Positions 86-43,992 are shown, numbered from the stretch's first letter. The stretch: DNA of 64,000 nucleotides from an uncultured Candidatus Saccharibacteria bacterium (GCA_964551595.1 CAZKCU010000001.1:65246-129245), one strand, 5' to 3'. Made by a program: numbers and translations. The notes: generated by a model not told the origin, from the sequence alone.

Positions 86-118
86 TTATTAGACCACCTA
101 TATCGCTTTTTTTAATTC

Positions 119-172
119 CGAGCAAAGAGAGGAATCAAGGTTCTACGAGCGAAGCGAGTGGGTTCTTATTCC
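119..172. repeat. About 55-nt interspersed element, copy 1 (overlaps the recA 3' end)
   Basis: CAAGGTTCTAC-GAGCGAAGCGAGTGGGTTCTTATT aligns with CAAGATTCTACCGAGCGAAGCGAAACGGGTTCTTATT at 60411-60465. Upstream TTNATTYCGAGC is also shared. Confidence 0.7.
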
Positions 173-1147
173 TTCGACTATTTTTTTAGTTATTTCCGGG
201 TTCTCCTTTAAAAAAGTTCTGCTCTCCTCTATGCCCTGGCCTAATTTTGTATTCTCAAATTGAAACCAAGAGCCGGCTTTTTTGACAATTTCATATTTTA
301 CTCCAGTATTTAAAATATCTGCAAATTTGGAAATTCCTTCATTGTAATAAATATCAAATTCGGTAGTTTTAAAAGGAGCGGCCACCTTATTTTTAACTAT
401 TTTTGCCTTAATCCTGCTGCCAATAATTTCATCCTTGTATTTTATCTGAGCCATTCTTCTTAAATTAATTCTTACTGAAGAGTAAAACTTTAAAGCCAAA
501 CCTCCGGGGGTCGTTTCAGGGTTTCCCCACGACACTCCTATTTTCATTCTGGTTTGATTTAAAAATATAACAGCGGTTTTTGTCTGAGCGACAATCCCGG
601 AAAGCTTTCTTAATGCTTGACTCATAAGACGGGCTTGAAGTCCTATCTGAAACTCACCCATCTCCCCAGCAATTTCTGCTTTAGGGGTTAAAGCAGCTAC
701 TGAATCAATAACAATGACATCTACCTCGCCTGACCTAACTAAAGTTTCGACTATCTGGAGAGCTTGTTCGCCTGAATCTGGCTGAGAAATTAAAAGGTCA
801 TCCACATTTACCCCGATCTTTCTGGCATAATCTGGATCTAAGGCATGTTCAACATCAATAAAAGCAGCCACCCCGCCTTTTTTTTGGGCCTCAGAACAAA
901 CATGCAAAGCTAAAGTACTTTTTCCGGTCGATTCAATCCCATAAATTTCAACCACTCTCCCTCTGGGGATTCCGCCTACTCCTAAAGCTAAATCTAAAGA
1001 AATTGCTCCGGTAGGAATAACATCAATATCAACCGGTCTTACCTCTTTTAGCTTCATAATCGCTCCTTCACCAAACCGCTGTTTGATTTCCTCCACCGCC
1101 TCTGCCAAATCCTTTTTCTCGGTATCTTGTTTTTTTTGTTTTGCCAT
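143..1147 (-). CDS. recA: Recombinase RecA
   Basis: 334 aa. RecA-like N-terminus (FGEGAIMKL), Walker [13 protein letters not shown], conserved core IDSVAAL. The last residues (RTHSLRS) are encoded by the repeat at 119-172. Confidence 0.97.
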
Positions 1148-1167: not shown

Positions 1168-3360
1168 TTAAACTTTTTTCCAGTCATCTGACTCCTCCTC
1201 TTCTTCAGTTTTTATATAAACCTGGCGAGCTTTAGCCCCTTCTCCCGGTCCAACCACTCCCCTTTCTTGGAGCATATCAATAAGTCTTGCCGCCCTGGCA
1301 TAGCCAATCCGGAGATATCTTTGAAGTAAAGAAGCTGAGGCTTTTCTTGAGCGAATCACTAATTTTTTGGCCTCTTCATAAAGAGGATCTTCTCCCTTAA
1401 AAAAGGTTTCAGCTCTTTCTCCCGTTTCATCCATTTCTCTTTTTTCTAATTCTTCTTTCAAATTTTCTTCAAGTCCATTTTTAAAAATAGGGGGCATGCC
1501 TTTTTTCTTGAAAAATTCCATTACCCTTTTTAGTTCTTTTTCTGAAACATAAGCTCCCTGCATTCTTCTTGGTTTAGCCGATTCAGCTGAAAGATACAAA
1601 AGGTCTCCTAATCCCAAAAGTTTTTCTGCCCCGGCCATATCTATAATTGTCCTTGAATCAATTTGAGAAGCGACCTGAAAGGCAATCCTTGAGGTTATGT
1701 TAGCTTTAATTAAGCCGGTAATTACTTCAACCGAGGGCCGCTGAGTAGCAACTACCAGATGGATGCCAACCGCTCTAGCCATCTGGGCCAATCTAACAAT
1801 TCCAACTTCAACTTCTTTACCTCTGGCAGCCATCAAATCAGCTAACTCGTCAATAATTAAAATAATATAAGGCATTAAATGGTCGCCCTTTTTTAAAACT
1901 GCTTCATTATAGAGAGTGATATCTCGAGTTTTTGTCTCGGCCAAAATTTCAAACCTTCTTTCCATCTCTAAGGTCAACCATTTTAATACATTTATAGTTT
2001 TTTGGGCATCATAAATTACCGGGGTTAAAAGGTGGGGGAAATCTTGATAAACTGGAAATTCCACTCTTTTGGGGTCAATTAAAATAAATCTTAAAATCTC
2101 CGGTCCATTTCGATAAACAAGACTCAAAATTAAAGAGTTTAAATAAATTGTCTTTCCAGTACCCGTAGCCCCGGCAACTAAAAGATGAGGCATTCTTCCT
2201 AAATCTGTAAAAACAGCCTTCCCGGTTACATCTTTCCCTAAACTAATGACTAAATTCGAAGGATGATTTTGAAATTCAGGAAGAGAGAAAAGATTTCTCA
2301 GTCTTACCCTCGTTCGGATTTTGTTTGGAATCTCAATTCCTACCAAAGGTTTACCAGGAATAGGAGCTTCAATTCTAATAGGATGAGCGGCCAGGGCTAA
2401 GGAAAGATTATTACTTAAAGCGGTAATTTTTGATAATTTTACTCCTTCAGCTGGCTTTAAGGTATATTGAGTAACAGTGGGACCAATGTTTACTTCGGAC
2501 ATCTCTACTGGAATATTAAAATTTTGTAAAGTTTTTTTAATAATTGCAGAATTTACTTTGATATCACCACTGGAAGGTTCCCCGCTATCTGACTCAAGTA
2601 AATCCAGAGGCGGGAACTGATAACCCCCCAGACTACTAATAGCAGAAGGTTCCAAAGCTTTAGTTTTTAACTCCGGAAAGACAGGCTGATGTCCAGTTTT
2701 TTCCGTCTCTTTGGGAGCTACGGGCGGGATTTCTTTCACCTTAAATTTTGGCCTAAAAATTCTTTTAATAAAAGAAGGTCTAGAAGGTTCTTTTTCCAGA
2801 ACTTCTTCTTCGGTCTTTGAAGGCATAGCTTGTTTTAAAAATTGCCAGAAAATTAAACCCCCAATAATAATTAGAACTCCAGATATAATTTGAGTTACCC
2901 AAAAACCAAATAATTTAATCAAGGATAAGTTAAAAATATAACCTATCCACCCCCCTTCCCCCTGTCCTATTCCAGGCTTGGCTGGGACGAGTTTTTGGTC
3001 CGAATTTAGGCTCCCCAAAATTCCAGAAATTCCCAAAACCAAAAGTAAAATTGCTGAAATTATCGGCAATAAAAATTTTTTGTACTTTGTAGTTAAAAAT
3101 ACTCCGCCGGCTATTAGAAAAATTAAAGGAATTATAAAAACTGTCTTTCCTATTAAAAAAGTAAGCCCTTTTATTAGAGCTTTCCCGGCTATCCCAGCTT
3201 TATCCGCAAAAGAAAATATCAGAATTATTGCTCCTAATAAAAGCAAAATTCCCAAAATCAATCTTTTGGTTTTCCCGGACAAAGCGGAAAGGTAGCCTGG
3301 GTTCTTTATTCTTTTAAAGGTTTTTCTCCTCAATTTTTGATTTTTCTTTTTAGCCATCAT
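1168..3360 (-). CDS. ftsK: DNA translocase FtsK/SpoIIIE
   Basis: 730 aa. N-terminal TM helices, Walker A GATGTGKT, C-terminal gamma winged helix (SASLLQRYLRIGYARAARLIDMLQERGVVG). Confidence 0.95.
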   Translation of the reverse strand: MMAKKKNQKLRRKTFKRIKNPGYLSALSGKTKRLILGILLLLGAIILIFSFADKAGIAGKALIKGLTFLIGKTVFIIPLIFLIAGGVFLTTKYKKFLLPIISAILLLVLGISGILGSLNSDQKLVPAKPGIGQGEGGWIGYIFNLSLIKLFGFWVTQIISGVLIIIGGLIFWQFLKQAMPSKTEEEVLEKEPSRPSFIKRIFRPKFKVKEIPPVAPKETEKTGHQPVFPELKTKALEPSAISSLGGYQFPPLDLLESDSGEPSSGDIKVNSAIIKKTLQNFNIPVEMSEVNIGPTVTQYTLKPAEGVKLSKITALSNNLSLALAAHPIRIEAPIPGKPLVGIEIPNKIRTRVRLRNLFSLPEFQNHPSNLVISLGKDVTGKAVFTDLGRMPHLLVAGATGTGKTIYLNSLILSLVYRNGPEILRFILIDPKRVEFPVYQDFPHLLTPVIYDAQKTINVLKWLTLEMERRFEILAETKTRDITLYNEAVLKKGDHLMPYIILIIDELADLMAARGKEVEVGIVRLAQMARAVGIHLVVATQRPSVEVITGLIKANITSRIAFQVASQIDSRTIIDMAGAEKLLGLGDLLYLSAESAKPRRMQGAYVSEKELKRVMEFFKKKGMPPIFKNGLEENLKEELEKREMDETGERAETFFKGEDPLYEEAKKLVIRSRKASASLLQRYLRIGYARAARLIDMLQERGVVGPGEGAKARQVYIKTEEEEESDDWKKV

Positions 3361-3428: not shown

Positions 3429-6400
3429 TTATTTTCTCTTAAAACCCGTTCCAGCTGGTATAAGTTTACCAATAATAACATTTTCTTTTAACCCACGGAG
3501 TTTATCTTCTTTTCCTTCGATTGCAGCTCTAATCAAAACTCTTGAAGTTTCCTGAAAAGAGGCAGCCGATAAAAAGGAATCGGTAGTTAAAGCTACCCTC
3601 GAAATTCCAAGCAAAATGGGGACCGAGGTCGCCGGTTTTTTCCCTTCTTTTTTCAAAGCAGAATTTATTTCTAAAAATTTCGCCCTCTCAATAATCTCAC
3701 CAGGAGTAAAAAAACTTTGACCAGCATCTTTAATTTTTACTCTCGAGAACATCTGCCGAACTATTACCTCGATATGTTTATCATGAATAATTGCTCCCTG
3801 AGAAACATAAATTTTTTGAATCTCATTAATAATATAATGTCGGGTCTCTTTAGCCCCGCCTATTTTAAATAACTCTTTTAAATCTAAACTTCCTTCACAA
3901 AGTTGCTGACCGGCTTTGATATCCTGACCAGGCTTCACCCAGATAGCCATTTTCGGCGGTATTTGATATTCAACAATTTCAGTTTTTTTAGTAGCTTTCC
4001 CCGGATCATTACCTTTGATTTTTATAACTCTCTCTGGGGTTATCTTTAATACTTTTCCTTCAACCTGGGAAATTTGGGCCCTTCCTCCAGGCTCCCTGGC
4101 TTCAAAAATCTCCTGAACTCTGGGAAGACCAAAAGTTATATCTCCTCCACCTGCCACTCCTCCGGTATGAAAAGTTCTCATGGTCAACTGGGTACCCGGT
4201 TCTCCAATAGCCTGGGCAGCCACAATTCCCACAGCTTCCCCTAATTTAACCAATTGATTTACTCCAAGGTCCCAACCATAACATTTTTGACAAATCCCCC
4301 TGACGCATTTACAGCTTATTGGAGAACGTACTCGAACTTTCTCAACCCCGGTTGCTACTATTTGTTCAGCCTTCTTCCAGTCAATAATCTCTCCTTTTTT
4401 AACAATGATCTTAAAGGTTGCCCTTTTCCCTGCAGGAATCTCCACCTTAAGTCTTACATTTTCTAATGATATTCTTCCCAAAATCTTAAAAAGAAAATTT
4501 TGGCCAATATCTTCGGCATCTTGTCTAAATATTTCAATTCCTGATTGATCCCGGCAATCTTCTTCTCTAATCACCAGCTCATGAGAAACATCGACAAGGC
4601 GCCTGGTTAGGTAACCTGCAGTGGAAGTTCTTAAAGCAGTATCTGCTGTCCCCTTTCTTGCCCCATGGGTAGAAATAAAGTATTCCAAGACATCAAATCC
4701 TTCTTTAAAAGAACTTTTCACCGGAAGCTCAATAATTTGTCCGGCTGGGTTAGTAACCAAACCTTTCATTCCTGTCATCTGAACTGGCTGCCCCCAAGAG
4801 CCTCGGGCTCCGGAATCTACAATTTGGAAAACCGAACCTGTTTCTGGCAAAGTTTGAGGTACCAATTTCTCAATTTCCGATTTTGCCTTCATCCAAACCT
4901 CAATAACTTTATTGGTTTCTTCTTCTTTAGAAAAAAGACCGGTTTTGTAATAGTTATTAATCTTATCTACCTCTTTTTCAGCTCCTTCAATAATTTTTTT
5001 CTTTGAGGGAGGAATAATTAAATCGTCCATCCCCCAGGATATTCCAGAAATAGTAGCTGCCTCAAACCCTAAATCTTTAATTTTATCCAGAGTTTTCCAA
5101 GACGTCTCCTGCCCATATTTTTCAATAATTTCCCTTAAGAGTGTCTCTAATTTTTTAGAATTCATAACTTTATTTTGAAAAGGAAAATTTTCAGGTAAGG
5201 TCTCGTTGAATAAAATTCTTCCCACAGACGTTTCTATAAACTTTGAACCATCCACTATGTTCGGCATTCTGACTTTTATCTTGGCTTTTATATTGATTTG
5301 GCCAAACTCATAGGCGAGTTCCGCCTCCTCTGGAGAACCAAAAATTTTCTCTTCTCCTTTTAATCCCTCAACAATTTTTGTTAGCCAATAGCAGCCTAAA
5401 ACAATATCCTGGGTAGGAGTGACAATTGGAACACCAGTAGCTGGTTTCAATAGATTGTGGGTAGATAACATTATTTGTTTCGCTTCCTGCTGAGTCTCAT
5501 CTGACAAAGGAAGATGAACTGCCATTTGATCCCCGTCAAAATCGGCATTAAAAGCCTCGCAAACCATTGGATGAACTCTAATTGATTCTCCCTCAATTAA
5601 AACTGGCCTGAAGGCCTGAATTCCCAATCTGTGCAAAGTCGGAGCCCGATTTAATAATACAAATTTATCTTTGACTACCTCTTCTAAAGCCGCCCAGACT
5701 TCATCTGTTTCTGTCTCAATCAATCTTGTAGCTCCCCTAACATTATAGGCAAGTTCTTTATCCAAAATTTTCTTAATAATAAAGGGTTTGAAGAGCTCCA
5801 GAGCCATCTTTTTGGGAAGTCCGCACTGATCGAGTTTCAACTTAGGACCAATGACAATTACCGACCTTCCAGAATAATCAACTCTCTTCCCTAAAAGATT
5901 CTGTCTAAACCTGCCCTGCTTTCCCTTGAGCATATCAGTCAAAGATTTCAAAAGTCTTCTGCCGCCGGTAGTAGCCTGGGTTATTGTTCCTTTTCTCATT
6001 CCATTATCAATTAAAGCATCTACTGCTTCCTGGAGCATTCTTTTTTCATTTCTGACAATTACTTCCGGGGCATCAATTTCCAGAAGATAGCGAAGCCGAT
6101 TATTTCGATTAATTACCCTCCTGTAAAGGTCATTTAAGTCAGAGGAGGCATATCTTCCGCCATCAAGTTGAACCATTGGTCTTAAATCCGGGGGCAATAC
6201 CGGTAAAACAGTCAGAAACATCCATTCTGGCCGGAGGCCGGTTCTTTCCATTCCTTGAAAAATTTTTAATCTTCTTAAAACTTTTCTTTTAGTTGAAGAA
6301 GTGGTTTTCTTTAATTCGTCTTTCAATAAATTTATCTCTTTTTTAAGGTTAACTTTCTCAAAAATTTTCCTCAGGGTTTCTGCCCCGGTACCGGCTTCAA

Positions 6401-7064
6401 AACACTCTCCATATTTAAAGGAAAATTCATGAAATTCAATTTCAGATAAGATTTTCAGAGGCTTGAAAGAAAGCACTTCTTCTCTTGCTCTATCTCTTGC
6501 CGCCTTTAATTCAGTCATAAAAGCCTTAGTAGTCCCAGAACCTTTTACAGCTTTAGGGTTCTTCTGGCTCTTCTGGCTTTTAAGGCTCTTAACTTTCATC
6601 TTGTATTCTGTCTCAATTTTTTTCAGAACTTTTTTCTTAGCTTCTTCTGAAACACTGGTTATAATGTAGGCGGCGAAATAAATTACCCCTTCTAATTGAT
6701 GAGCTGGAATATCCAAAATCATTCCCATTCGGGAGGGCACCCCTCTTAAAAACCAGATATGAGAACAAGGAGTTGCCAATTTAATATGGCCCATCCATTC
6801 TCGTCTGACTGAAGATTTTGTTACTTCCACTCCGCATCGGTCGCAAACTATTCCTTTATAACGAATTTTTCGGTATTTTCCGCAATAACATTCGTAATCT
6901 TTTTCCGGCCCAAAAATTTTTTGACAAAAAAGGCCGTCCTTCTCTGACTTTTGAGTCCGGTAGTTAATGGTTTCAGGTTTGGTAACTTCACCGTGGGACC
7001 AGCCCAAAATCTCCTCTGGCGAGGCTAATTTTATTCTAATTGATTCTAAATCTGCTACACGCAT
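3429..7064 (-). CDS. rpoC: RNA polymerase beta' subunit
   Basis: 1211 aa. Zn-finger CxCGK...C..CGV, catalytic NADFDGDQM. Confidence 0.98.
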   Translation of the reverse strand: MRVADLESIRIKLASPEEILGWSHGEVTKPETINYRTQKSEKDGLFCQKIFGPEKDYECYCGKYRKIRYKGIVCDRCGVEVTKSSVRREWMGHIKLATPCSHIWFLRGVPSRMGMILDIPAHQLEGVIYFAAYIITSVSEEAKKKVLKKIETEYKMKVKSLKSQKSQKNPKAVKGSGTTKAFMTELKAARDRAREEVLSFKPLKILSEIEFHEFSFKYGECFEAGTGAETLRKIFEKVNLKKEINLLKDELKKTTSSTKRKVLRRLKIFQGMERTGLRPEWMFLTVLPVLPPDLRPMVQLDGGRYASSDLNDLYRRVINRNNRLRYLLEIDAPEVIVRNEKRMLQEAVDALIDNGMRKGTITQATTGGRRLLKSLTDMLKGKQGRFRQNLLGKRVDYSGRSVIVIGPKLKLDQCGLPKKMALELFKPFIIKKILDKELAYNVRGATRLIETETDEVWAALEEVVKDKFVLLNRAPTLHRLGIQAFRPVLIEGESIRVHPMVCEAFNADFDGDQMAVHLPLSDETQQEAKQIMLSTHNLLKPATGVPIVTPTQDIVLGCYWLTKIVEGLKGEEKIFGSPEEAELAYEFGQINIKAKIKVRMPNIVDGSKFIETSVGRILFNETLPENFPFQNKVMNSKKLETLLREIIEKYGQETSWKTLDKIKDLGFEAATISGISWGMDDLIIPPSKKKIIEGAEKEVDKINNYYKTGLFSKEEETNKVIEVWMKAKSEIEKLVPQTLPETGSVFQIVDSGARGSWGQPVQMTGMKGLVTNPAGQIIELPVKSSFKEGFDVLEYFISTHGARKGTADTALRTSTAGYLTRRLVDVSHELVIREEDCRDQSGIEIFRQDAEDIGQNFLFKILGRISLENVRLKVEIPAGKRATFKIIVKKGEIIDWKKAEQIVATGVEKVRVRSPISCKCVRGICQKCYGWDLGVNQLVKLGEAVGIVAAQAIGEPGTQLTMRTFHTGGVAGGGDITFGLPRVQEIFEAREPGGRAQISQVEGKVLKITPERVIKIKGNDPGKATKKTEIVEYQIPPKMAIWVKPGQDIKAGQQLCEGSLDLKELFKIGGAKETRHYIINEIQKIYVSQGAIIHDKHIEVIVRQMFSRVKIKDAGQSFFTPGEIIERAKFLEINSALKKEGKKPATSVPILLGISRVALTTDSFLSAASFQETSRVLIRAAIEGKEDKLRGLKENVIIGKLIPAGTGFKRK

Positions 7065-7078
7065 AAAATTAATAGATA

Positions 7079-10000
7079 TTATTTTGTTTTTTCTTTTTTC
7101 TTTTCTTTTACTTCTATGCTTAATCCCATTGCTTTCAATTCATTAACCAATAAATTAAAAGAGGCCGGAACGTTAGGATTTCTGATTGGTTCTCCTTTTA
7201 ATATTGCTTCGTAGGTAGCTGCTCTCCCCATAACATCGTCAGATTTTATAGTCAGCATTTCCTGAAGAGTATGAGCTGCGCCGTAACCTTCCAATGCCCA
7301 GGCTTCCATTTCGCCAAATCGCTGACCGCCAAATTGGGCTTTTCCTCCTAAGGGCTGTTGGGTAATCAAAGAATAAGGACCAATCGAGCGCATGTGGATT
7401 TTATCTTTAACCATATGGATTAATTTCATCATATAGACATAACCTATGGTAATTTTTTCAGGAAAAGGAAGTCCTGTTCTTCCGTCAAACAACCTAACCT
7501 TTCCATCTTCGGGAAGACCGGCCATCTTGAGTTCTTCTTTTATGTCTTTTTCATTAGCCCCTGCCAAAGCCGGGGAAATGGCAATATAACCCAATTTTTT
7601 AGCTGCAAAAGACAGATGAGTCTCTAAAATTTGGCCGATATTCATTCTTGAAACAACGCCCAAGGGATTTAAAATTATATCCACCGGAGTTCCATCTTCC
7701 ATAAATGGCATCTCTTCTGGCGGTAGAACCTTAGAGACTACCCCTTTGTTCCCATGACGGCCGGATAACTTATCACCTGATTGAATTTTCCGAATCTCGG
7801 CCACCTCTACCTCAATTCTTTTTATGACGCCTGGCTCCAACTTATAACCAAGGTCTCTGGAAAAAACCTTTATCCCTATGACTCTGCCCCTCTTTCCATG
7901 TTCCATACTTAATGAGGTGTCCTTTACTTCTCTGGCTTTTTCTCCAAAAATTGCCCTTAATAACCTTTCTTCAGCAGTTAAATCTGCCTCTCCTTTTGGT
8001 GAAATTTTCCCAACTAAAATAGCATTGGGGTCAACTTCTGCTCCAATCCTGACAATTCCCTCCTCGTCTAAATCTTTTAATTTCTCTTCTGAAACATTAG
8101 GAATATCAGAGGTAGTGATTTCTGGCCCCAATTTTGTCTCTCTAACATCGCAGCTAAAGCTCTCAATATGAATTGAGGTATAGGCATCATCTTTTACCAA
8201 TCTCTCTGAAATTAAAATCGCATCTTCAAAATTCCCTCCCCGCCAGGGAAGGAAGGCCACTAAAATATTTTCTCCTAAAGCCAGATATCCCTGAGACATT
8301 GCTCCTCCGTCAGCCAAAAGATCTCCTTTTTTAATCTTTTGACCCTTTTTCACTACCGGTTTTTGGTGAAAACAAGTATATTGGTTAGTTCTAATAAAAG
8401 TTCTCAAAGGATAACTTTTGAGTTTGGAGCTTTGACCTCTGACTTCAATATGGTTGGCGTCTACTTCCGCCACTACTCCGTCTTCTTTGGCAATCACTCC
8501 CTGGCCAGAGTCTCTGGCTATTCTTTCTTCCCCTCCAGCACAAACTAAAGGAGGTTCTGGTTTTATTAAGGGGACTGCCTGTCTTTGCATATTTGATCCC
8601 ATCAAGGCCCGGTTGGCATCATTGTTTTGTAGAAAAGGAATACAAGATGCCCCAATTGAAATAGATTGCTCAGAAGAAACGTCAATAAAATCAATTTTCT
8701 CTCTATCTGCCAGTCCTGGCTCACTTTTTATTCTTGCCTCAACTTTTTGAGGCAAGATATTACCTTTTTCATCTATTGGCACAGCTCCCGATGCAATATT
8801 ATATTTCTCCTCTTCATAGGCATTAAGATAATGAACTTCTGAGGTCACCTTTCCTGCTTTTACTTTAAAATAAGGAGTTTCAATAAAACCGTAGGGATTA
8901 ATCCTGGCGAAAGAAGCCAAATGACCAACCAATCCAATATTTGGTCCTTCTGGAGTTTGGATAGGGCAGATTCTTCCATAATGCGAGGGCTGAACATCCC
9001 TTACCTCAAATCCAGCTCTTTCCCGGGTCAGACCTCCTGGTCCGGTTGCCGACAACCTTCTTTTATGCTCTAACTCAGCCAGAGGATTTTCATTATCCAT
9101 AAATTGGGACATCTGGGAGGAGGTAAAAAATTCCTTGATGACAGCCATCACCGGACGGGGATTAATGAGTTGAACAGGGGTTAAGGTATAAATATCTAAA
9201 GTTGACATTCTATCTTTAATATTCCTTTCCATCCGCATTAACCCTACTCTTATCCTGTTTTGCAAGAGCTCATCTAAAGTTCTTACTCTTCTATTCCCTA
9301 AATGGTCAATCTGATCTGGCTTTCCATTTGGATCATTATTAAGACGGATTATCTCTCGAATAACCGCTACCACATCCTCTGGTTTCAGAACTCTGTCTTC
9401 CACCTTAATTTTCTCCTTGCCACGGAGTGCCGGTAATTTCTGTCTCATTCGCCACCTTCCCACTTTTGACAAATCATATCTTCCAAAGTTAAAAAACATG
9501 TTCTCAATTAGTTCCCGAGCTGTATCAGGGGTAGCCACATCGCCGGGCCTTAATCTTTGATAAACTTCAACTAAGGCCTCAGCTTGATTATGAGTTAAAT
9601 CTTTCTTTAAAGTTTCCTCAATGTATTTAACTTCACCCACATCAACATCTTTGAAAAGCTCTTTGATTTGCTGCTCTTTGTCTATGCCAAAAGCTCTTAA
9701 TAAGCTGGTAGCTGGAGCCTTTCTTTTTCTATCAATTTTTACTCCAATAAAACCAGAAGGGTCTGACTCAAATTCCAGCCAGGACCCTCGATTGGGAATA
9801 ATTTTCGCTCCAAAGTAATCTTTACCCTGCAGAGACTGGCTATTAAAAAAGACTCCGGGGGAACGAATAAGTTGGGAAATTACCACCCTTTCCACTCCGT
9901 TAACAACAAAAGTTCCCCTTTCGGTCATTAAGGGGAAATCAGTTAAAAAAACCTCTTGCTCTTTAATTTCTCCGGTCTTAAGATTGACTAATTTCACTAC

Positions 10001-10405: not shown

Positions 10406-12841
10406 TTACTTCTCTAATCTTTCTGGGGGAACTTCTTCAATTGGGGGCTGGCTTGGCTGAATCCCCTCCAAAGCCGGCTTTCCAGCTCTCAAATTAGCCA
10501 AAATATTTTTAACTTCTGAATTTTCAAGGTTTAATTTTTCAATCCTTTCAAATTGGTCAATTGCTCCCTTTTTATTTTCCTCCCGGTCATAAATCAATCC
10601 CAGAAAATAACGGGCATTGGAATAATTTTCATCTAATCCTATAGCTCTTTTAAATTCTCCTTTCGCTTTCTCAAATTGCTCATCATTATAATAAATAACA
10701 CCTAATTGAAAGGCAAGACCTGCATCAAGTGGTGCCACCTGCTTGATTGTCTCAATTTTATCTATTGCCTCCTCAGTTTTTCCCTCTCTAACATAAATCA
10801 TCGCAATCTGGAAATGGGCCGGGGCATAATCATCTTTAAGTGAAAGAGCCCGTTCAAAATTTTCCAAAGCTAATCTAAAATTTTCTTGCCCTTCTCCTTC
10901 ACCTAAATCAAATTTTAAAATATAAACTCTGCCAATCTCAGTAAAGATATAAGGATTTGTCGGCTCCAATTCCTCTGCCTTCTGATAGGAATTCAGGGCC
11001 CAGTCCCCGGCGCCTCCAACTATTCCCATCATATTCCGATAAACAAATCCTCTGACATTCCAATTAGCGACATTAACTTCATTTAACCTGGCTGCCTCTT
11101 TTGCCGAATTTATAGCTCCAGTTATAAGAATTTGGTTCTGGGAAGTCATCTCCTCAGCATTTAAATCAGTTCCCTGTAAAACTTCGTCTAATCTTACTAA
11201 ATAAAGCTGGGAGATATCTCGCCAATAAATATCTAAGCCTGGATTTAAATTAATTGCTTCTTTTAGACGTAAAATCGCCTGCTCTGTTTGGGCCGCTTGC
11301 CAATCTCTCAACCCCTGAAGATACTTTATTTCAGCCATATATTTTTGGGTTCCAAGGAAAAGAAATCCAATGCTAAAAATTAAAACCAAAACTAAGCAAA
11401 AAGATACTCCTACCGCCAGAGAAGAGCCAGGACTAATCTCCCAAGATTTAATTTTTCTTTTATCAAGAGCTGTAAAGCCTGCCAGTAATATCCAAAAAAC
11501 TAAGTTTAAAGAAAAATTGGCAGGATAAAGAAGTTGACTCACAGCTACTCCACCAAAAGCCGAAAAAACTCCCAGCCCAAACAAGAAAGGTATTCCATCT
11601 TTCATATCTCTGGCTTTTTCTCTTAAATATCTAAAACCCAGCCAGAAAAACATTCCAAAAATAGAAATTAAAGAAAGGATTCCAAGAATTCCGGTGGTGA
11701 TTAATTTATCAAGAATTTCTGAAGCCCCTGACGCAAATCTGGTATTCCAAAAAATTGTCTGATTTAGGTCTTTTGATTTAAATTTTGAGAAATTATAGAC
11801 AAAATTTCCCGGTCCCGTACCCAAAATAGGAGATTTAGCTAAGCTACTTCTGGCAATGCTGATTTCTGCTCTCTGGCTTGGGGAAACCTCAAAAGGAGTT
11901 TGGGGAAGGCCGGGCAAAGAAAACCTGAAAATAACAAAAAACAAAGCAATAATTAAAAGAGCTATTGAGAACTGAATCCCACCAGCTTGGATAGTCTTAA
12001 TGTTAAGCATCTGAAAAATAAAAAGTACTGCTGCCCCAATAATTAAAACCAACCAGGCCACCCAAAAATTAACCAAAACTAAACCAACCAACATTACTAA
12101 AGCAAAAATTGCTAACATCATTCGCATCCACTTTTTCGCAATAAGCATTAGGATAATTGTCAAAGGAAGCAAAATAGCTAAAAATACGGCCAGCGAATTT
12201 ACTGTTCCGATAGTGTTAAAAGAAATAATTCTGGTGAAATCCCAGGATAAGATAAATTTACCAAAGAGTTGAAGCCCGCCAAAGACTGCTGCTAAAAATC
12301 CTGAACTAACTAAAGCAAGAAAAAGCCAAAAAATCTCTTGCTTTTTTGTAAAAACATTGGCGATTAAGAAATATAAAATTCCGAAACAAAGCAATGTTAA
12401 AAATCCAGCGCTAACATTAAGTGGAAATCCCCAAAAACTTCCGTAAGTTGATAAAGAAAAAAGAGTTGAAAACCCATAAACCACCAGCATTATTACTATT
12501 GGAAGGGAAAGCCGGCTTAGATTAAATTCAAATCTGCCAGAAACTAAAATTTTCAAAATCCAGGCAAAAAGGGCTAAAATTACTAAAATCCCCATCAAGG
12601 CCTGCTTGTTAAAATCAAGAACATTAAGAGTCCAGGGAAGAAAAAATAGAGGCGTTAGAAATACCAAAAGATAAATACTAATCTTGGCAATTTTATCCCA
12701 AAGTTCAACCTTCTTAGGAATCTGGATTTTGGTATCTGGAGTTTCCTCAACTTTGGTAGGAGAACTCCCTTGTCTCAGAGAATTTTTTCCAGGAATGTTA
12801 GACATCGGATGTCTAATATTAATTTTTATTGGAACTTTCAT
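10406..12841 (-). CDS. Polytopic membrane protein with O-antigen-ligase-like (Wzy_C) core and C-terminal TPR repeats
   Basis: 811 aa. About 12 hydrophobic helices, then a soluble C-terminal half with repeated TPR-like A..Y/F..A..L.P patterns. An alternative start at 12805 (MSNIPG) lies inside the palindrome. Confidence 0.6.
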   Translation of the reverse strand: MKVPIKINIRHPMSNIPGKNSLRQGSSPTKVEETPDTKIQIPKKVELWDKIAKISIYLLVFLTPLFFLPWTLNVLDFNKQALMGILVILALFAWILKILVSGRFEFNLSRLSLPIVIMLVVYGFSTLFSLSTYGSFWGFPLNVSAGFLTLLCFGILYFLIANVFTKKQEIFWLFLALVSSGFLAAVFGGLQLFGKFILSWDFTRIISFNTIGTVNSLAVFLAILLPLTIILMLIAKKWMRMMLAIFALVMLVGLVLVNFWVAWLVLIIGAAVLFIFQMLNIKTIQAGGIQFSIALLIIALFFVIFRFSLPGLPQTPFEVSPSQRAEISIARSSLAKSPILGTGPGNFVYNFSKFKSKDLNQTIFWNTRFASGASEILDKLITTGILGILSLISIFGMFFWLGFRYLREKARDMKDGIPFLFGLGVFSAFGGVAVSQLLYPANFSLNLVFWILLAGFTALDKRKIKSWEISPGSSLAVGVSFCLVLVLIFSIGFLFLGTQKYMAEIKYLQGLRDWQAAQTEQAILRLKEAINLNPGLDIYWRDISQLYLVRLDEVLQGTDLNAEEMTSQNQILITGAINSAKEAARLNEVNVANWNVRGFVYRNMMGIVGGAGDWALNSYQKAEELEPTNPYIFTEIGRVYILKFDLGEGEGQENFRLALENFERALSLKDDYAPAHFQIAMIYVREGKTEEAIDKIETIKQVAPLDAGLAFQLGVIYYNDEQFEKAKGEFKRAIGLDENYSNARYFLGLIYDREENKKGAIDQFERIEKLNLENSEVKNILANLRAGKPALEGIQPSQPPIEEVPPERLEK
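12798..12816. promoter_or_regulatory. Second copy of the palindrome TTAGACATC-G-GATGTCTAA
   Basis: Identical 19-mer to 3381-3399 with similar AAT(R)/(Y)ATT flanks. Sits in the 5' end or leader of the Wzy_C/TPR gene, just downstream of the giant gene. Confidence 0.5.
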
Positions 12842-12906
12842 AGTATTTTAAATTTTAGCAAATTACGAAATAAATGCAAGAAAGAAGAAATTAGAACTGC
12901 CCCTAT

Positions 12907-15900
12907 TCAATCAATGTCGGGTGTTGGTTCCTCCACTGCTGGTTCTTCAGCTGGTGGTTCTTCTGCAAGTGGTTCTTCTTCCGCAGGTGGTTCTTCTGCT
13001 GGTTCTTCAACTGCTGGTTCTTCAACTGCTGGTTCTTCAGACTTAGGCTCGGTATTACAACCTTCATTATACCAGAAACCTGCAGCAGTTTCACATTCAG
13101 CTTGGGTCGTACATAAGGTCAAGTGAGTTGCGTCGCAAACATCTGGTGTTGAACCATCAGTTAAATCATCGCTCCCTGAGTTGTCGGTATTTGATACCGA
13201 CAGACTATTACCATCACTCCCTTCTCCGCTTGAACCACTGTTACTATCAATACTTTGAATCTGGTTTTTCATCAACAATTCTTCCAATTGATTTTTGTCA
13301 ACGCAAATTGTTTCGCCATCATCTCCTTCAAGACATAATTTTTTGGCAAATATTTTTTCGGCAATCAATTCTCTCACCTTAACAATGCCATCCTTTATTA
13401 ATAATCCTAATTTCTCTAAGCTCTTTTTTATTGCTAAAGTAAATTGGTCTAAAATTGTTGGCTGTTCTTCCGAAGTTTCTGAAGAAGTCTCGTTGTTATC
13501 TATTAACTGTTCATTATCATCAGATGTGGCGAGCGAGCCGTCGTCTAAGAGCTGACCCAATGACCAGTGAGGATTAACAAAAACCATAATCTTACCAATT
13601 TCGCTTTCGACAGTGGTGCATTCTTCTGCTTCTTCATTCTTAGCAGTTTCTTCATTCCCAGTAATTACTGTTTCACATTGAGTTATAGTGCCATTAAACG
13701 GTTCTAAAGCCATTCCAATTACTCTTCCTGGCTCAGTGGATTTCATCGCAATTCCTGACTCTGAAGAAGAAGTTAAGGGATCGCCAACAGTAATCTCGCC
13801 TCCTTCCAAAGAAACCTTTACCGGCACATCTCCAAGGTAAGCTACTGGTATACCGGGGAATTCATCAAGTTCTAAATTGCCTTCTCTCATTTCTTCTTTC
13901 CAGTTATGGGGATAACTGATAAAACCTGCTTTTTCAGCTACCACTCCCAGGAGAGTGTTTTGATAAAGTAGAGAGGTTTTAGATACTTTTTTGTCTTCAC
14001 TAATTACTATTAATTCTCCAATTTCATAATCTTCTTTTTCTCCTTCAATGAAATGCATGGAAATATAGGGGGAGAAGGTACTCCAGGCTACATCAGCATA
14101 GGCAGTTCCATCTGTATCAAAACGGTATCTTTCTACTCCTCCTGAATAAATATGGAGAGGATAAGTTGGGTTCATGGTACCGATACCGACATTTCCTCCG
14201 TAAATAAATGAATCAGCATAAGAAACATATATCTGACCGCCAACCACCACTGCTGTCTGAATCTTACCGTCAGAAGACATGACTACCCCACGCCAGTATC
14301 TATCTGAATCTTTGGCTGTCCAGGTGTCACCGTAGTCGGTGGAAACATAGATCTGGCCATTATTCACTACCGCCGTCTGAACCTTACCGTCAGAAGATAT
14401 AGCCACTTCCCACCAGCTTCTACTTGAATCTTTGGCTGTCCAGGTATTGCCGTAGTCAGTGGAGACATAAATTTGGTCACCATCCGCCGCCGCCGTCTGA
14501 ACCTTACCGTCAGAAGACATGGCTATTCCAAGCCACCATCTATCTGAATCTTTGGCTGTCCAGGTATTGCCGTAGTCAGTGGAGACATAAATTTGGCCCC
14601 CATCATCCGTGGCCGTCTGAATCTTACCGTCAGAAGACATGGCCACCCCATACCAATCTCTACTCGAATCTTTAGCTGTCCAGGTATTGCCATAGTCTGT
14701 AGAGACATAGATTTGGCCGCTAGAAACCGTGGCTGTTTGAATTTTACCGTCCGAGGACATGGCTACTTTTTGCCAATTCCTACTTGAATCTTTGGCTGTC
14801 CAGGTATTGCCGTAGTCAGTGGAGACATAGATTTGGCCAGTCACGACCACCACTGTCTGAATCTTACCGTCAGAAGACATGGCTACTCCTCTCCAATCCC
14901 TACTTGAATCTTTGGCTGTCCAGGTATTGCCGTAGTCAGTGGAGACATAAATTTGGCCAGGAGCACCATCCGCTGCTGTCTGAACCTTGCCATCAGAGGA
15001 CATGGCTACTCCAAGCCAGCTTCTATCTGAATCTTTGGCTGTCCAGGTATTGCCGTAGTTAGCCAACCCCCACTGATTTTCTTTGACCCCAACTCTGCCA
15101 AAATACATTCCTCCTTCCAAACTTGAGAGTAAAACATTGTCAGTTGAAAGATAACCTGCCTTAAGGGTAGAAGATAAATCTCCAGCAATGGTTAGTTTTT
15201 GAAACGGACTCTCTGTCCCTATACCGACATTACCAGAAAAATAATGTTTATCTGACCCAGCAGCATAAATTCCATAATCATAATTAAAGCTATCTGCGTA
15301 AAGCTGTAGTCCGTAGGAAATTGTGGCTTTATCAGCTTGTAAGTTATTAGCAATCCTTAATCCCACAGCTTCTGTGATTGTCCCGCCCGTAGAACCATCA
15401 AGAATAAACTCTGCAGCACGCATTGTTGTAACACTATGGTCTTTAGAGTCAGCACTAATTGATAGACCTTCAAGAACGGCTACATCGTTTCCTTCATCTC
15501 CTGGAGCTTCTGTGCGTGCTTTTAATTCCATACCTCTGATTGTTCCTGTTGATGCTAAAATGCCATTGCTAATATCAATGTATGCTCCCCGTAGGGTACC
15601 GGTCATAGCAGTGTCATCGGTATGCAAGCCAGTAACCCGTAAAAGAGTATCCCCGCCTGCTGCTGTAGTAGTTTCGGAAAGATGTAATAAGTGGCTTGGA
15701 CTCGCTGTCCCGATGCCGACGTTGCCGGACTTATCAATAACCATTTTGCCTGCAGCATCACCATCTTGGACATAAAATAAATTGCTATCCTTGTAGGCCA
15801 CAAGCCCTGACTCAGTATCCCCCTGATAGGCAGAATCAAGAGTAAGATTGAGGTTACCAGTAATTTCGGAAACAGTAAAGATTTCTGACTTAATTTTAAT

Positions 15901-18900
15901 GGCGTCTCCTACAATCAACTCTGTGGTAAATGCTGTGCCAGTGCCCACTACAGCCGTAGATAGACTGGTCACTGCCACCGTGCCTGTTAGAGCGGTGTTT
16001 AAATTACCTTTGACATCTAAATTGGCGGTTGGTGCCGTTGTCCCGATACCTAAATTACCAGCGATATAAGCATCGCCGCTTTGTTTAACATAAAACTTAT
16101 CAACTTCAAAAACATCTTCTTGAGGGCCAGCGTTATCAAAATCAAAAATAGAAGGATGGCCACCGAAATTATTAGGATAGCCAAACCAAAAATGAGTATT
16201 AGTACCAAGAGCCAGACAATCTGAATTGGCAACGGTTACCGTTCCGGTTTGGACACTATCGGTGACGTTGAAAATAGTAAGTGTTAAGTTTACCGCATCT
16301 CTAGTGATAGTAATTCGGTATTCTTTGGCAAAATCAATAGTTATTCCTAGCCAGTTGCTCGAACCAGTTTGCCAAGTAGTCCCGTTATAATAATATTTTA
16401 TGTTGTTTTGGTCAGTTCTAGTTAGAGTAGGATTAGGATAGTAGCTATAGAAACCAAGATGGAGCAAACTAGTCGAAGTTGACCAATAATCAAATTCGCC
16501 AGTAGGCGAATTGGTCCCGGTCCAAATACCGAACTTGACGCCACAATAATTCGAGCCTTCGCAATAATTTTTAAGAGCTTCCACTTGGTAGCCGAAAGTT
16601 GAACCAATATTATTAGTAGTTCTTAGATAAACGTATGTTCCGCTAGTCGCAGCATAGCTGGCCCGATAAACACCGCTAGTTACTTGGCCATCACTACCAC
16701 CACCTTCGTAGTTGGTAAAGATACCATAAGTTTCACCATTATCTAAAGCAGCATCGGTATCAAATGTTTCTAGTGTTATAGGAGCATTAAAAATTCTTAG
16801 AAGTTTGCTTGATGCTCCTTCTCCTGAAGTACGTCCATAGATTTTTCCTAAAACTTCAAGTTTAACGGACGGATTGGTCGTCCCGATTCCGACGTTGCCA
16901 TCAACAGTGGCTAAAGCAGTGGTGGCAGTGCTTCTTAAGGTACCATAAACATCCAAAGCATATGCTGGCGTTGCCATCCCGATGCCCACGTTGCCGCCAA
17001 GAAAAGCAGCAGTATAGTTGTTTGTAGCGCCAGTTTGAGTATTGACGGTTAAGCCATAGGAGTTAGTAGCTCCAGCCGCAACCGCTCCAGCTTGAATCAA
17101 GAGTCCATGAGTGTTTGTAAGTGTTGCATTTGTACCTGCTATTGGAGCACCTGCGACCGCTAATGTAGCAGCATCTGTAATAGTGCTTGCTCCAACAAAC
17201 GAATAAGTCGGAGCTGTAATTAGAACCTCCCTTTGAGTTGTTAATGCTCCTGTTGCCCATTGCCTGCCAGCAGTTGTAATAGTTACGGCTGGTATTTCTG
17301 TTGAGAGCGTTTGATCGGTATTAACTGCTCCAGTATAAACAATGCCTGTTAATTCTCCTGTTGCTGTTGCCGTTTGTACAACTTGGAATTTTGCTGTAGG
17401 ATTCGTCGTCCCAATGCCGACATTGCCGTCTCCGTCTATAACTAAACGGGTAGTCAGTTGGCCACCACCTCCAGTGTTTTCATAGCCATAGCAATATGTC
17501 TGCTGGTTTCCAATCAATAAATCATAATCTCCGTCATTGTCTAGGTCGGCAAAGGCTGGACCAGCCCAAGCACTCACATCAGGAGTATCCCAGCTGGATT
17601 TTGCTATCCAAGTTGGGCTGGAAACAGTTCCGGTGTTTTCATAGCCATAGCTTATTCCACTATTGTCTCCAATCAATAAATCATAATCTAAATCATCGTC
17701 TAAGTCGGCAAAGGCTGGGCTAGCCCGAGTTCCCACATCAGAGGTATCCCAGTCTGATTTTGCTTCCCAGGTTGGACTGGAAACAGTCCCGGTGTTTTCA
17801 TAACCATAACTATATCCATCACTCGCTCCAATCAATAAATCATAATCTAAATCATTGTCTAAGTCGGCAAAGGCTGGTCTACTATAATCTCCCACATCAG
17901 GAACATTCCAGTCTGATTTTGCTGCCCAAGTTGGGCTGGAAACAGTTCCGGTATTTTCATAGCCAATGCTTATCCCATTCTCGGTTCCAATCAATAAATC
18001 ATAATCTAAATCATTGTCTAAGTCGGCAAAGGCTGGGGCAGCTTGCTTTCCTGCATCAGGGGGATCCCAGTCGCCTTTTCTTGTCCAGGTTGGACTGGAA
18101 ACAGTTCCAGTGTTCTCATAAGCATAGCTGTATCCGTTAGGCACTGATCCGTTCGAACCCACCCCAATCAATAAATCATAATCTAAATCATTGTCTAAGT
18201 CGGCAAAGGCTGGTCTAGGGTCAGCAGGCCCAGAAACATCCCAGTCAGATTCTGCTGCCCAGAAATCTATTGACTGCAGGCTTTTAAACAAGAAGGAGGA
18301 AAGACCAGTCTGAAGAATAGTTTCATTGTCTAAAGAAAGAATAGTATCGAGATATCTGTTAGCATCGTATCTTACTGATAACTGGGAAGTAGTAGTACTG
18401 GTAATTCTGACTTGACCAGCAATATCTAATTCCACCTCCGGGCTGGCTGTGGCAACACCGACCTTGCCGCTGGTTTCATACAAAACAGAATCAGTCAAAT
18501 CGGTGCTGGTGTTCCATTTAGGCAGATAGCCAGCAGTTCCGCTTCCAGTTACTCCTCCGGCTCCAGCAATGGTTGTCCAAGCCAAACTACCTGAGCCATC
18601 ATCCTTCAAAAACCCATCAGCAGTATGAGCAGAAGGCCAAGAATAGGTAAGGTTTTTTAGCTTGATAATATCTCCAGAACTATCTACCTGGAATTGAGAA
18701 GCAGAACCAACAGAAAAAAGAGAAGTAGGACTGGCTGTGCCGATGCCGATATTACCTCCATCATCTAAAACTAATTGATTACTAACTCCGTCAACATTCA
18801 TTACCAAATCACCATTAGAATCTACTTGAAAGTCAGCATAGACTGATTCATCTGCCTGAGTAAGACGAAGTTGAGGGTTAGAAGCGTCTAAAACGTCTAA

Positions 18901-22947: not shown

Positions 22948-23094
22948 TAAACGGGTCTTCTTTTTTTATCTTTTTATCTTATTTTTCTTTAGGAAATCAT
23001 TTCCCGTGACGGGAAATAAATCGATTATTTCATTATCTTTGAAGTAAACACCCTTGTCAAGGGCTACAATTGTGGAAAACTTCATCTATAAATA

Positions 23095-23265
23095 TAGTCG
23101 AAGAACATCCGTTCTTCTTCACTCACCGAGTCTCGTTTGCGGGACGAAGGTGGAAAAGAGTGCGGAGCGCTCTTTGACTTCGCTGCGACTCGGGTAGGCG
23201 AAGAGATAAATCTCTTCTTCACCCTTCATTGCGATTCGAGTAACCGAGAAATCTAAAGTCCAAAG
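23095..23265. ncRNA. GC-enriched multi-hairpin region (candidate structured RNA, class unknown)
   Basis: Nested or adjacent stems: GAAGAAC-ATCC-GTTCTTC; GTCTCG-TTTG-CGGGAC; AAAGAGTG-CGGAG-CGCTCTTT; CCGAGTC...GACTCGG; GAAGAG-ATAAAT-CTCTTC. Noticeably more GC-rich than its surroundings. No ORF. Confidence 0.3.
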
Positions 23266-23439: not shown

Positions 23440-25018
<1,579 letters not shown>

Positions 25019-34885: not shown

Positions 34886-35257
34886 TCAGCGGATGATTTC
34901 GATTGCCCTTTTTGTTTCCTTAAAACTTCCTTTTGATATGATGCAGTAGTTAGTAGCTGTACAATCTGGTCCGGGTGCTAAAACTCGGGTGCTATAACTT
35001 GCTCCATTTTCTAAATTTCCAGAAACAGCGCCTCCTCTATAAAGGACTTCTTCAATCCCGGTATCAGCAGCATAAAAAGCTACCACCGAATCTCCTATCC
35101 CTCTTATTATCTTTATTTGACCAAATAAAATGGACGATATCCCCAAGCCTATAGACAGAAGGACGGCCATAATCAATAGGGCAAGATAGAGAGAAACGCC
35201 TTTTCGTGAGATTTTTTTATAGTTCATAGTCTTAATAGTTGGATTAGTATTTAACAT
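34886..35257 (-). CDS. PilX-like minor pilus protein
   Basis: 123 aa. N-terminal hydrophobic helix KGVSLYLALLIMAVLLSIGLGISSILF, then a small beta-rich domain. Last gene of the minor-pilin run. Start may be 35227. Confidence 0.4.
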   Translation of the reverse strand: MLNTNPTIKTMNYKKISRKGVSLYLALLIMAVLLSIGLGISSILFGQIKIIRGIGDSVVAFYAADTGIEEVLYRGGAVSGNLENGASYSTRVLAPGPDCTATNYCIISKGSFKETKRAIEIIR

Positions 35258-35837
35258 CGAGGTTTCTTTGGGAAATTGTGGTTTGAATTTTTATCTTTGG
35301 CTGTTCCTCGAGTTTCTGACCTTTGCCCTTCACAGCTAAAAAGATTGTTACTCTTGGCTGGAGGTCATCATCTTGGGACCAACCTGACGAAGGACCAAAG
35401 TCAAGAGAGGTTATTTGGAGGGAGGCTGAGGTTAAGTCGAAAATTTGCTCACCTGCCTGACCAATTTTTTTTCTGTATTTTAATTGGGCACCCTCAAGGA
35501 AAAATTCTTGGCAGTCATCTTCTTCCAAATGATTTATAAATTTCAGGCCAGAACCACTATGGGTAATTTCATAATTTAAGCCATCCTGGGAAAGACAAGC
35601 AGGAATATCAGTAGTTTGTTTGCTTGCCATCCTCAAAGCCCGACTCATATACTCTAAGACATAACTTGTCTGATCTAAAAGTCTTTGAGAAGATAAAGCA
35701 CTTTTCTGACCCCTGAAACCGGAAATAAAAACTCCTGAAATTACTCCTATAATCAGAGAAAAAATCATCACCGCCGCCAGCATCTCGATCAAGGTAAATC
35801 CCCCTTTCGTCTTTTTAGCATTTAAGCATTTAAACAT
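35244..35837 (-). CDS. Type IV minor pilin (prepilin-type N-terminal cleavage/methylation domain)
   Basis: 197 aa. Leader MFKCLNAKKTKGG followed by FTLIEMLAAVMIFSLIIGVISGVF. Confidence 0.85.
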   Translation of the reverse strand: MFKCLNAKKTKGGFTLIEMLAAVMIFSLIIGVISGVFISGFRGQKSALSSQRLLDQTSYVLEYMSRALRMASKQTTDIPACLSQDGLNYEITHSGSGLKFINHLEEDDCQEFFLEGAQLKYRKKIGQAGEQIFDLTSASLQITSLDFGPSSGWSQDDDLQPRVTIFLAVKGKGQKLEEQPKIKIQTTISQRNLDVKY

Positions 35838-35864
35838 ATTAGCATTTACTTATTTTAGATGATT

Positions 35865-36371: not shown

Positions 36372-36428
36372 TTTGGCAAATGATTTTTATTGTGTTTTAA
36401 CGTTCATATCTTTAAACGCTTAGATGCC

Positions 36429-37726: not shown

Positions 37727-37754
37727 TTTCTCTCTATTTTAACTTTTAAATTGT

Positions 37755-37790: not shown

Positions 37791-37823
37791 AGCTAATTTA
37801 ACAAACGAGTCTCTTTTGCCAGT

Positions 37824-39578: not shown

Positions 39579-39587
39579 ATTTGATTG

Positions 39588-43987: not shown

Positions 43988-43992
43988 ATTTT

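Follow-up and report, generated by a model that had tools for sequence, protein, structure and literature searches.

A short double-hairpin repeat, probably mobile, in recA and the ribosomal protein S1 gene of a Patescibacteria-like bacterium

The DNA analysed here is a single stretch of 64,000 nucleotides (the window) with a GC content of 37%, in which GC skew follows gene orientation and gives no replication direction. Judged by the relatives of its S1 and RecA proteins, it comes from a Patescibacteria/CPR bacterium near Candidatus Nealsonbacteria. The gene for RecA lies at one end of the window and that for ribosomal protein S1 near the other, and each of them holds one copy of a short repeat that we call family 1 (coordinates count from the first letter of the window; L numbers stand for loci elsewhere):

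143-1147, minus strand: recA; its last 8 codons (IRTHSLRS) and its stop codon (143-145, plus-strand CTA) come from the element
115-172, plus strand: family-1 copy A, antisense to recA at its 3' end; 51.8 bits; empty site in L004 (CP179888.1)
115-119, plus strand: left direct repeat of copy A, ATTCC
115-135, plus strand: hairpin 1 of copy A, ATTCC-GAGCAAAGAGA-GGAAT
136-144, plus strand: segment CAAGGTTCT of copy A
142-162, plus strand: hairpin 2 of copy A, TCTAC-GAGCGAAGCGA-GTGGG
147-157, plus strand: invariant core GAGCGAAGCGA in hairpin 2 of the recA copy; flanking stem CTAC/GTGG intact
160-167, plus strand: segment GGGTTCTT of copy A
168-172, plus strand: right direct repeat of copy A, ATTCC
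59847-61001, plus strand: ribosomal protein S1 gene, four S1 domains; likely true start at M10 (59874)
60405-60458, plus strand: S1 insertion of 54 nt, F187-V204 (FISSGARNKILPSEAKRV), family-1 copy B, in sense with S1; empty site in L003
60406-60411, plus strand: left flanking direct repeat TTATTT of the S1 insertion
60440-60450, plus strand: invariant core GAGCGAAGCGA in hairpin 2 of the S1 copy; the 3 variable stem pairs around the core are broken
60460-60465, plus strand: right flanking direct repeat TTATTT of the S1 insertion; this is the copy found in the empty site

An initial annotation, made from the sequence of the window, had reported that about 55 nt at the recA 3' end match the interior of the S1 gene, and two independent methods recovered this match at the same positions. 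Local blastn within the 64-kb window aligned 112-170 with 60405-60464 (78.7% identity over 61 columns, E = 2.5e-7), the blocks common to both copies being TTCTAC, GAGCGAAGCGA and GGGTTCTTATT. A covariance model built from 31 copies, none of them from the window, was run with filters off and matched 130-171 (51.8 bits, E = 1.5e-8) and 60422-60465 (49.6 bits, E = 4.3e-8), with no other match in the window. With at most one mismatch, GAGCGAAGCGA occurs 5 times in the window against 0.56 expected, and 5 occurrences were reached in 0 of 100 shuffles. Strand and frame of reading differ between the two copies, so the unit is conserved as nucleic acid, in agreement with the initial annotation. A shared peptide motif, or a chance likeness of low-complexity sequence, could be argued from the shortness of the match; with unrelated peptides read from opposite strands (IRTHSLRS and SSGARNKILPSEAKRV), significance by both methods and an empty site for each copy, either origin is vanishingly improbable.

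Comparison with orthologues identified the S1 segment as an insertion. Among 27 aligned S1 proteins, the 18-residue segment was found only in the window protein and in P0001-P0005 (at least 87% identical), and in the proteins of at most 83% identity ..QKEGK is directly joined to LILSEK.., with no insert. At the DNA level, the empty site of L003 has ..GAGGAAAAA directly joined to CTTATTTTATC / CTTATTTTATCTG, and the filled site reads GGAAAATTTATTT, then 48 nt (CGAGC...GGGTTC), then TTATTTTATC / TTATTTTATCTG, a gain of 54 nt with TTATTT on either side. The copy, in sense with the gene, was expected to add about 18 amino acids, and it is indeed a clean 54-nt, 18-aa insert relative to orthologues below about 87% identity. 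Its placement in S1-linker sequence has to be revised. In an AlphaFold model of the window protein, the insert falls within a stretch of pLDDT below 50 (residues 184-200) between strands 172-183 and 202-208, and it therefore belongs to the turn that joins the two final beta-strands of the second S1 domain, a loop inside that domain and not an inter-domain linker. On this model the insert is a disordered surface loop that appears to be tolerated.

The recA segment is likewise an insertion with a recoverable empty site. Among the C-termini of 120 relatives, IRTHSLRS occurs only in RecA proteins 100% identical to that of the window; those at 97% identity end in ..EGIKKAITENRKSV, and those at 95% in ..EGIKKAI. 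The empty site, in the complete genome CP179888.1 (L004), reads GAAGGAATTAAAAAAGCGATA, and the filled site of the window reads GAAGGAAT, 48 nt, GGAATTAAAAAAAGCGATA, with 5 bases repeated (ATTCC on the plus strand, GGAAT when read along recA). As first described, the copy is antisense to recA (a minus-strand gene with its stop at CTA, 143-145) and supplies its C-terminus and stop. By this comparison, the insert appears to swap about four tail residues for seven and to bring its own stop codon. Compared with L004, the former coding tail of recA past the element has a shifted frame and lacks 21 nt by deletion, so that the former C-terminal coding sequence is no longer read.

An assembly artefact is excluded, since the identical recA insertion occurs in three independent assemblies (L006, L007 and L008) and the S1 insertion is also carried by L001, L002 and L110. 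Judging from their spread among relatives, the S1 event is old (shared at 87% identity and above) and the recA event very recent (present at 100% identity, absent at 97%). The S1 copy would then have entered first, before the split from the relatives with 87%-identical S1, and the recA copy after the split from the genome with 97%-identical RecA. The state of the hairpins agrees with this order: the stem of hairpin 2 is kept in the recA copy, and its three variable pairs are lost in the S1 copy of the window. The S1 copy of L001 additionally lacks both GCGAAGC motifs. The two copies of the 64-kb window compare with none in 21 kb of the close relative L004, so that the genome may hold few of them.

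Further copies, for which the initial annotation had proposed a search, are present beyond this window, in metagenome contigs matched by the covariance model. A strict scan of species-representative genomes, among which the lineage is apparently not included, with CTACN{0,1}GAGCGAAGCGAN{2,3}GGGTT gave one chance match, in an Opitutae MAG. Scanning metagenomes with GAGCGAAGCGAN{2,3}GGGTTCTT retrieved at least 119 loci, and the matches listed fall into three classes (low-GC, giant-virus lake and high-GC). The low-GC class consists of contigs of 31-42% GC with the full unit, the full 3' module being present in 54 loci among the matches listed; judged from GC and gene content only, these other carrier contigs resemble CPR/Patescibacteria. 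The high-GC matches were set aside as unrelated, as they encode a conserved ..HELKNPLASLRS.. stretch that we take to be the histidine-kinase H-box. Lake contigs of 40-48% GC, from a giant-virus MAG with a different, long-inverted-repeat unit, were treated as a chance or convergent core. This MAG (IMG/VR GVMAG-M-3300009161-13; L129-L136, L015, L026-L028 etc.) holds many such elements, whose centre ccGAGCGAAGCGAGGGGGTTCTTaaat joins the mini-hairpin to a GGTTCTT core as in the bacterial family, a likeness that could be due to chance or to convergence.

In 531 kb of low-GC loci among those listed, the covariance model found 107 matches at E<0.01, and it found none in the loci of relatives lacking the inserts (L003-L005). 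A protein search with a natural 47-aa two-unit peptide matched only 2 short proteins. The family-1 unit can be written (TTAT)TTC-GAGCRAAGCGA-GAAAC-AAGGTTCT-nnn-GAGCGAAGCGA-n'n'n'-GGGTTCTTAT, with a length of 46-60 nt, and is composed of two hairpins, each followed by RGGTTCT. Hairpin 1 is replaceable by small GAA-looped hairpins (ATTCC-GAA-GGAAT, GACC-GAA-GGTC) or by other 5' modules. Units stand single or in head-to-tail arrays with a period of 46-54 nt, as in L122, L035, L117 and L105. Three other readings of the arrays were dropped: hammerhead-like, given that the CUGANGA-like positions covary as a stem; integron attC-like, the RYYYAAC/GTTRRRY cores being absent; and CRISPR, the arrays having no unique spacers.

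Each hairpin has a Watson-Crick stem of short length, which leads through a tandem G.A/A.G step to a GC-GAA-GC cap. This cap, invariant in both hairpins, is exactly the GCGAAGC mini-hairpin heptamer that had been named as the centre of the element. Hairpin 2 is supported by covariation among the 31 copies, with 83.9% of cells paired compared to 75.0 +/- 1.3 after shuffling and a covariation score of 0.216 compared to 0.082, each reached in 0 of 500 shuffles; sliding the 3' partners as a control left 20-50% paired. The innermost variable pair (18-30) is GC in 15 copies, CG in 7, UA in 6 and UG in 1, and pairs 16-32 and 17-31 are standard in 12 copies and non-standard in 19, mostly G.A/A.G. Nearest-neighbour folding of family-1 copies as RNA or as DNA was no better than that of shuffled sequences (z from -1.3 to +1.9). 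We do not take these scores against the structure, because the parameters ignore mini-hairpin stability and tandem G.A pairs, and covariation is the better test.

The heptamer d(GCGAAGC) melts at 76.5 C and is nuclease-resistant, and for the related RNA hairpin r(GCGAAAGC) the melting temperature is only 39 C (PMC13037366). These melting data argue for DNA rather than RNA as the structured form; the invariant G.U-type pairs U13-G35 and U15-G33 would suit RNA better than DNA. The d(GCGAAGC) mini-hairpin is a structural motif, whereas here it is found in a genetic element, where tandem G.A pairs and a covarying stem lengthen it.

Entry into conserved genes with the frame kept open, which had been proposed from the two copies of the window, proved to be typical of the family as a whole. 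Of the 63 unique copies among those listed, 14 lie in sense within predicted coding sequences, 5 in antisense and 44 in intergenic DNA, so that about 30% are inside ORFs; 29 of 73 module matches among those listed fall in stop-to-stop ORFs of at least 100 aa. In UvrB, comparison with PDB 9gy7_E shows a clean 20-aa insert, PSVKRGKQGSEERSDEGSYF, between LIDYF and PKDFLLIIDESH, with SVKRGKQGSEERSDEGSY as the element-encoded peptide. A family-4 uracil-DNA glycosylase (UDG) has about 18 extra amino acids with IRTRSLRSQNLDF relative to 4zbx_A. By Pfam, other host ORFs contain domains of a GyrB-type ATPase, pol III delta (C-terminal domain), a ComF-like protein, a PMT_2 glycosyltransferase and an M23/YkuD peptidase; one family copy lies at a MurJ-like C-terminus, and a 25-aa insert is present in L124 and not in its L034 orthologue. 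Three reading frames are in use (sense ..NKVLPSEARRVLI, sense ..ERSEKQGSEERSEGGSY and antisense IRTRSLRS).

Whether such in-gene copies reach the protein bears on a further explanation, that they are skipped by ribosomal bypassing, as in T4 gene 60 and the yeast mitochondrial 'byp' elements, or removed from the RNA. The byp elements may resemble the in-gene copies, which are short, GC-rich and hairpin-forming, and whose flanking direct repeats could act as take-off and landing codons. Every internal copy examined is nevertheless open and a multiple of three in length (54 nt in S1, 60 nt in UvrB, about 54 nt in UDG), as expected only if the copies are translated. In addition, the former recA C-terminal tail is out of frame past the copy and no longer read, and old copies, such as the S1 copy of P0005 (FIASRMGKKILPTGVKRV), change as coding sequence does. 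We therefore consider bypassing or removal very improbable.

The family could also work at the RNA level, its dispersed units being intrinsic terminators, for instance, or hairpins that stabilise or process mRNA and were spread or recruited to regulate genes; the recA and S1 copies would then act on their transcripts. Hairpin 2 is followed by a U-rich tract (GGGUUCUUAUUU), its stem covaries, and the conserved U.G pairs are strand-specific; some copies carry on their reverse strand a -35-like TTGATT/TTGAAA with TATAAT 16 nt away, and copies lie upstream of hsp20 in L127. The hairpin with a U-rich tail is what terminator-like repeats (e.g. SPRITE) have, but the orientation toward the upstream gene that would go with it is not seen: this gene shares the strand of the intergenic copy 18 times and has the other strand 19 times, an even split that argues against an oriented signal or terminator. 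Copies also occur within essential ORFs in both orientations, and the copy in recA, which runs antisense to its host gene, is found past a convergent S18 terminator (44-80). The sense copy in S1 has no stem, and that of L001 no GCGAAGC, so these features are not maintained in place. Rfam returned only tRNAs at the gathering threshold, and relaxed searches of both sites (E up to 10) gave chance-level matches only. An RNA function is improbable on this evidence; the absent orientation bias, the stem lost from the S1 copy and the GCGAAGC lost in L001 speak for a selfish rather than a functional element.

In L127, identical family-1 modules at 332-375 and 1481-1524 (minus strand) lie upstream of, and antisense to, duplicated hsp20 genes, and the reverse strand of the module has a -35-like TTGAAA.

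The junctions of the insertions share a common pattern. The left junction mostly follows a TTAT-like word (TAAT and TTCA also occur), the right end of the element also finishes in TTAT, and the family consensus has a conserved TTAT at either end. The longest flanking repeats are ATTCC (5 nt) in recA, TTATTT (6-7 nt) in S1 and TTATTTTCC (9 nt) in UvrB, and other solo copies share TTAT plus 0-5 further bases at their flanks, some having none beyond TTAT. At recA, the right repeat CTTATTCC differs at two positions from the pre-existing target TTAATTCC, so at most 5 nt are truly duplicated. Because the repeat lengths vary, TTAT belongs to both consensus ends and the recA repeat differs from its target, a transposase duplication of fixed length seems unlikely; the data agree with integration into targets similar to the TTAT-N end of the element itself.

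These junctions bear on the possibility of a classical MITE, in which a DDE insertion sequence has been shortened by deletion and moves by cut-and-paste, duplicating a target site of fixed length. Short direct repeats of 5-9 nt flank the insertions, and the window itself carries an IS1595-like transposase ORF (23440-24207), IS1595-family elements producing duplications of about 8 bp. Against this, the element has no terminal inverted repeats, its ends (CGAGC.. and ..GGGTTCTTAT) not being inverted copies of each other, and the repeat length changes from event to event (5, 6-7 and 9 nt, some copies having none beyond TTAT), with 5 nt at most duplicated at recA. No inverted repeats common to the element and the transposase region were seen, and head-to-tail arrays are atypical of MITEs. 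A MITE is thus a quite improbable explanation.

No candidate for a mobilising enzyme was found: in a Pfam scan, the IS1595-type DDE protein was the sole transposase-like product among 32 window ORFs, and its region shares neither ends nor inverted repeats with the element. Clustering the ORFs that adjoin copies in the 54 listed loci gave no recurrent transposase, nuclease or other gene. Our tentative preference is for an enzyme that acts in trans on single-stranded DNA and recognises the hairpins.

IS200/IS605 elements have no terminal inverted repeats, carry a hairpin near each end and use guide-target pairing; a Y1 HUH TnpA acting on single-stranded DNA mobilises them, and they insert 3' of a fixed short word, which is not duplicated. 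The palindrome-associated elements derived from them resemble family 1 in the uninverted ends with a hairpin near each, and here too internal segments (GAAA/GGAAT/GGAAAA) are complementary to flanks (TTTC/ATTCC/TTTTCC), which recalls guide-target pairing. They differ in that family 1 has 0-5 extra nt apparently duplicated beyond TTAT and in that no TnpA gene was detected in our analysis of the window. The flank and the internal segment together form the stem of hairpin 1 (ATTCC/GGAAT in recA, TTTTCC/GGAAAA in UvrB, TTTC/GAAA in S1), as seen in the three insertions whose pre-existing target is readable or inferable. Such pairing may be either a subfamily feature combined with homology-dependent integration or a guide-like choice of target. 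The bolder form of the latter, in which some 50 nt of protein-free DNA pick their targets by base pairing, guide integration and are copied as a mini-hairpin single strand by some enzyme of these bacteria, is rather unlikely; if true, the repeat would count among programmable mobile elements as a minimal one, and would be a natural way for essential proteins to acquire peptide insertions.

Taken together, we regard it as highly probable that a mobile family of hairpin repeats inserted at both sites as a passenger, and have far less confidence in any one chemistry of transposition. The best reading is a non-autonomous selfish repeat that behaves like the Rickettsia palindromic elements (RPEs) without being one of them. 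The initial annotation had drawn the comparison with RPEs, which holds as an analogy of behaviour and fails as membership, given a unit of 46-60 nt, its modularity and a different phylum. Like RPEs (compared here on the basis of PMC10969869), family 1 consists of selfish palindromic repeats in small AT-rich genomes, located in intergenic DNA and, unusually often, in frame within conserved genes, where a short peptide is added at tolerated surface positions; the RPE-type feature of a palindromic repeat in frame in unrelated conserved genes is found here in S1, RecA, UvrB, UDG and others. RPEs are about 100-150 bp long and Rickettsia-specific by description, whereas the units here are three times shorter, belong to Patescibacteria-like hosts, comprise two mini-hairpin modules, often form head-to-tail arrays and use at least three reading frames; the two are not known to be related in sequence.

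Other families of small repeats offer partial parallels. REP/BIME sequences, associated with RAYT (Y1 HUH) proteins, are likewise 20-40-nt GC-rich imperfect hairpins in many repeats and mosaic clusters, thought to be recognised as single-stranded DNA hairpins. REPs are usually paired in inverted orientation, whereas the units here are direct and about 30% of them lie in ORFs. According to a passage in PMC3733652, REPs are extragenic and have a conserved GTAG or CGTC head. Here 19 of 63 unique copies are in predicted coding sequences, the CTAC 5' of hairpin 2 in recA is part of a covarying stem (CTGAG, CTGCC, CTCTT, CCGAT... in other copies) and not a GTAG/CGTC foot, and the Pfam scan showed no RAYT (Y1) gene among the 32 window ORFs. 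Fungal mitochondria have GC clusters and double-hairpin elements that are also very short, GC-rich and built of two hairpins in AT-rich reduced genomes; they differ in being organellar and eukaryotic, with unrelated sequence. As here, mobility of the mitochondrial double-hairpin elements was shown by presence or absence between relatives (Paquin et al. 2000, as cited in a passage of PMC7218506). The family thus misses defining features of each bacterial type: the size and genus of RPEs, the head and extragenic site of REPs, and the inverted ends and fixed duplication of MITEs. In the literature that we searched for such elements in CPR/Patescibacteria, or for in-frame palindromic repeats, we found no description in that phylum.

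Under the selfish-repeat reading, copying would go through a single-stranded DNA form whose hairpins are recognised by an enzyme encoded elsewhere, and integration would be helped by similarity of the target to the TTAT-N end of the element. Both copies of the window would have entered T-rich TTATTY-like sites and left short flanking direct repeats. They would persist because they do no harm, the S1 insert being a multiple of three with an open frame in a putative disordered loop and the recA insert bringing its own stop; the element would have no function for recA or S1.

Genomes of the CPR (Patescibacteria) are tiny and usually called streamlined, yet these hold hairpin repeats of about 50 nt in intergenic DNA and in the frames of core genes. 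The repeats explain some of the lineage-specific peptide insertions in CPR proteins, can serve as a marker for very recent strain divergence, and constitute, beside Rickettsia, a second and independent case in which selfish palindromes are tolerated in essential proteins of reduced AT-rich genomes. A search for the mobilising enzyme could start from two concrete features, the GCGAAGC mini-hairpin and the complementarity of flank and interior.

The window contains several other repeats. A second family of about 62 nt, TTAATTGCGAAGCAATTGCCCACTGTTCACACACAGCAGGGAGCGAAGCGACCRGTTAATTA, occurs at 53334-53396 (plus), 56342-56404 (plus) and 58938-58997 (minus); it is palindromic, has two GCGAAGC motifs and forms a long hairpin (RNA z -3.4 and -2.2). 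None of the three copies is present at the orthologous sites of L001 (87% identical); one of them stands after the gyrA stop codon and ahead of the following gene's start, and another forms the C-terminus of a 72-aa ORF. Its 18-nt core CCCACTGTTCACACACAG is found alone inside ORFs at 63667-63684 (plus), 43067-43084 (minus) and 42911-42928 (minus). The first is an in-frame gain of 18 nt in a pseudouridine synthase ORF relative to L001, and the other two are both in a PilO-like ORF (42866-43420).

The FtsH C-terminal tail (62860-62925) includes a GC-rich hairpin segment of about 60 nt (..GGGCACAGTTTAAAGTTGGCGCGAAGCGCAGTGCCCC..) that is absent from FtsH of L001 and L003. Upstream of the IS1595-type DDE ORF (23440-24207; PF12762, E = 6e-8) lies a cluster of GC-rich hairpins at 23090-23260 (..CACCGAGTCTCGTTTGCGGGACGAAGGTGG..GTGCGGAGCGCTC..), and a similar unit occurs in L003 (about 2540-2620) at a non-orthologous place. 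Two nearly identical terminator-like hairpins, at 44-80 and 43443-43479 (ACCCCGCAC...GTGCGGGGT), are 43 kb apart and 92% complementary, which suggests a repeated terminator or an uptake-signal-like sequence.

Outside the repeats, ARAGORN identified a tRNA-Ile with anticodon TAT at 62958-63030; bacteria normally decode AUA with a lysidine-modified CAT tRNA, and a TAT tRNA-Ile is unusual. A giant ORF at 12910-22803 (minus strand) encodes 3298 aa, for the most part in tandem repeats whose periods are 120 and 159 nt. In L003 (82% identical), gyrA and ftsH carry LAGLIDADG inteins (4966-8781 and 10859-14101), and the window copies are without inteins. A type IV pilus cluster at 35247-45063 (minus strand) encodes PilM, PilO, two T2SSE-type ATPases, a T2SSF-type protein, a prepilin peptidase and several N-methyl pilins; it agrees with a DNA-uptake lifestyle, and could matter for the spread of small repeats.
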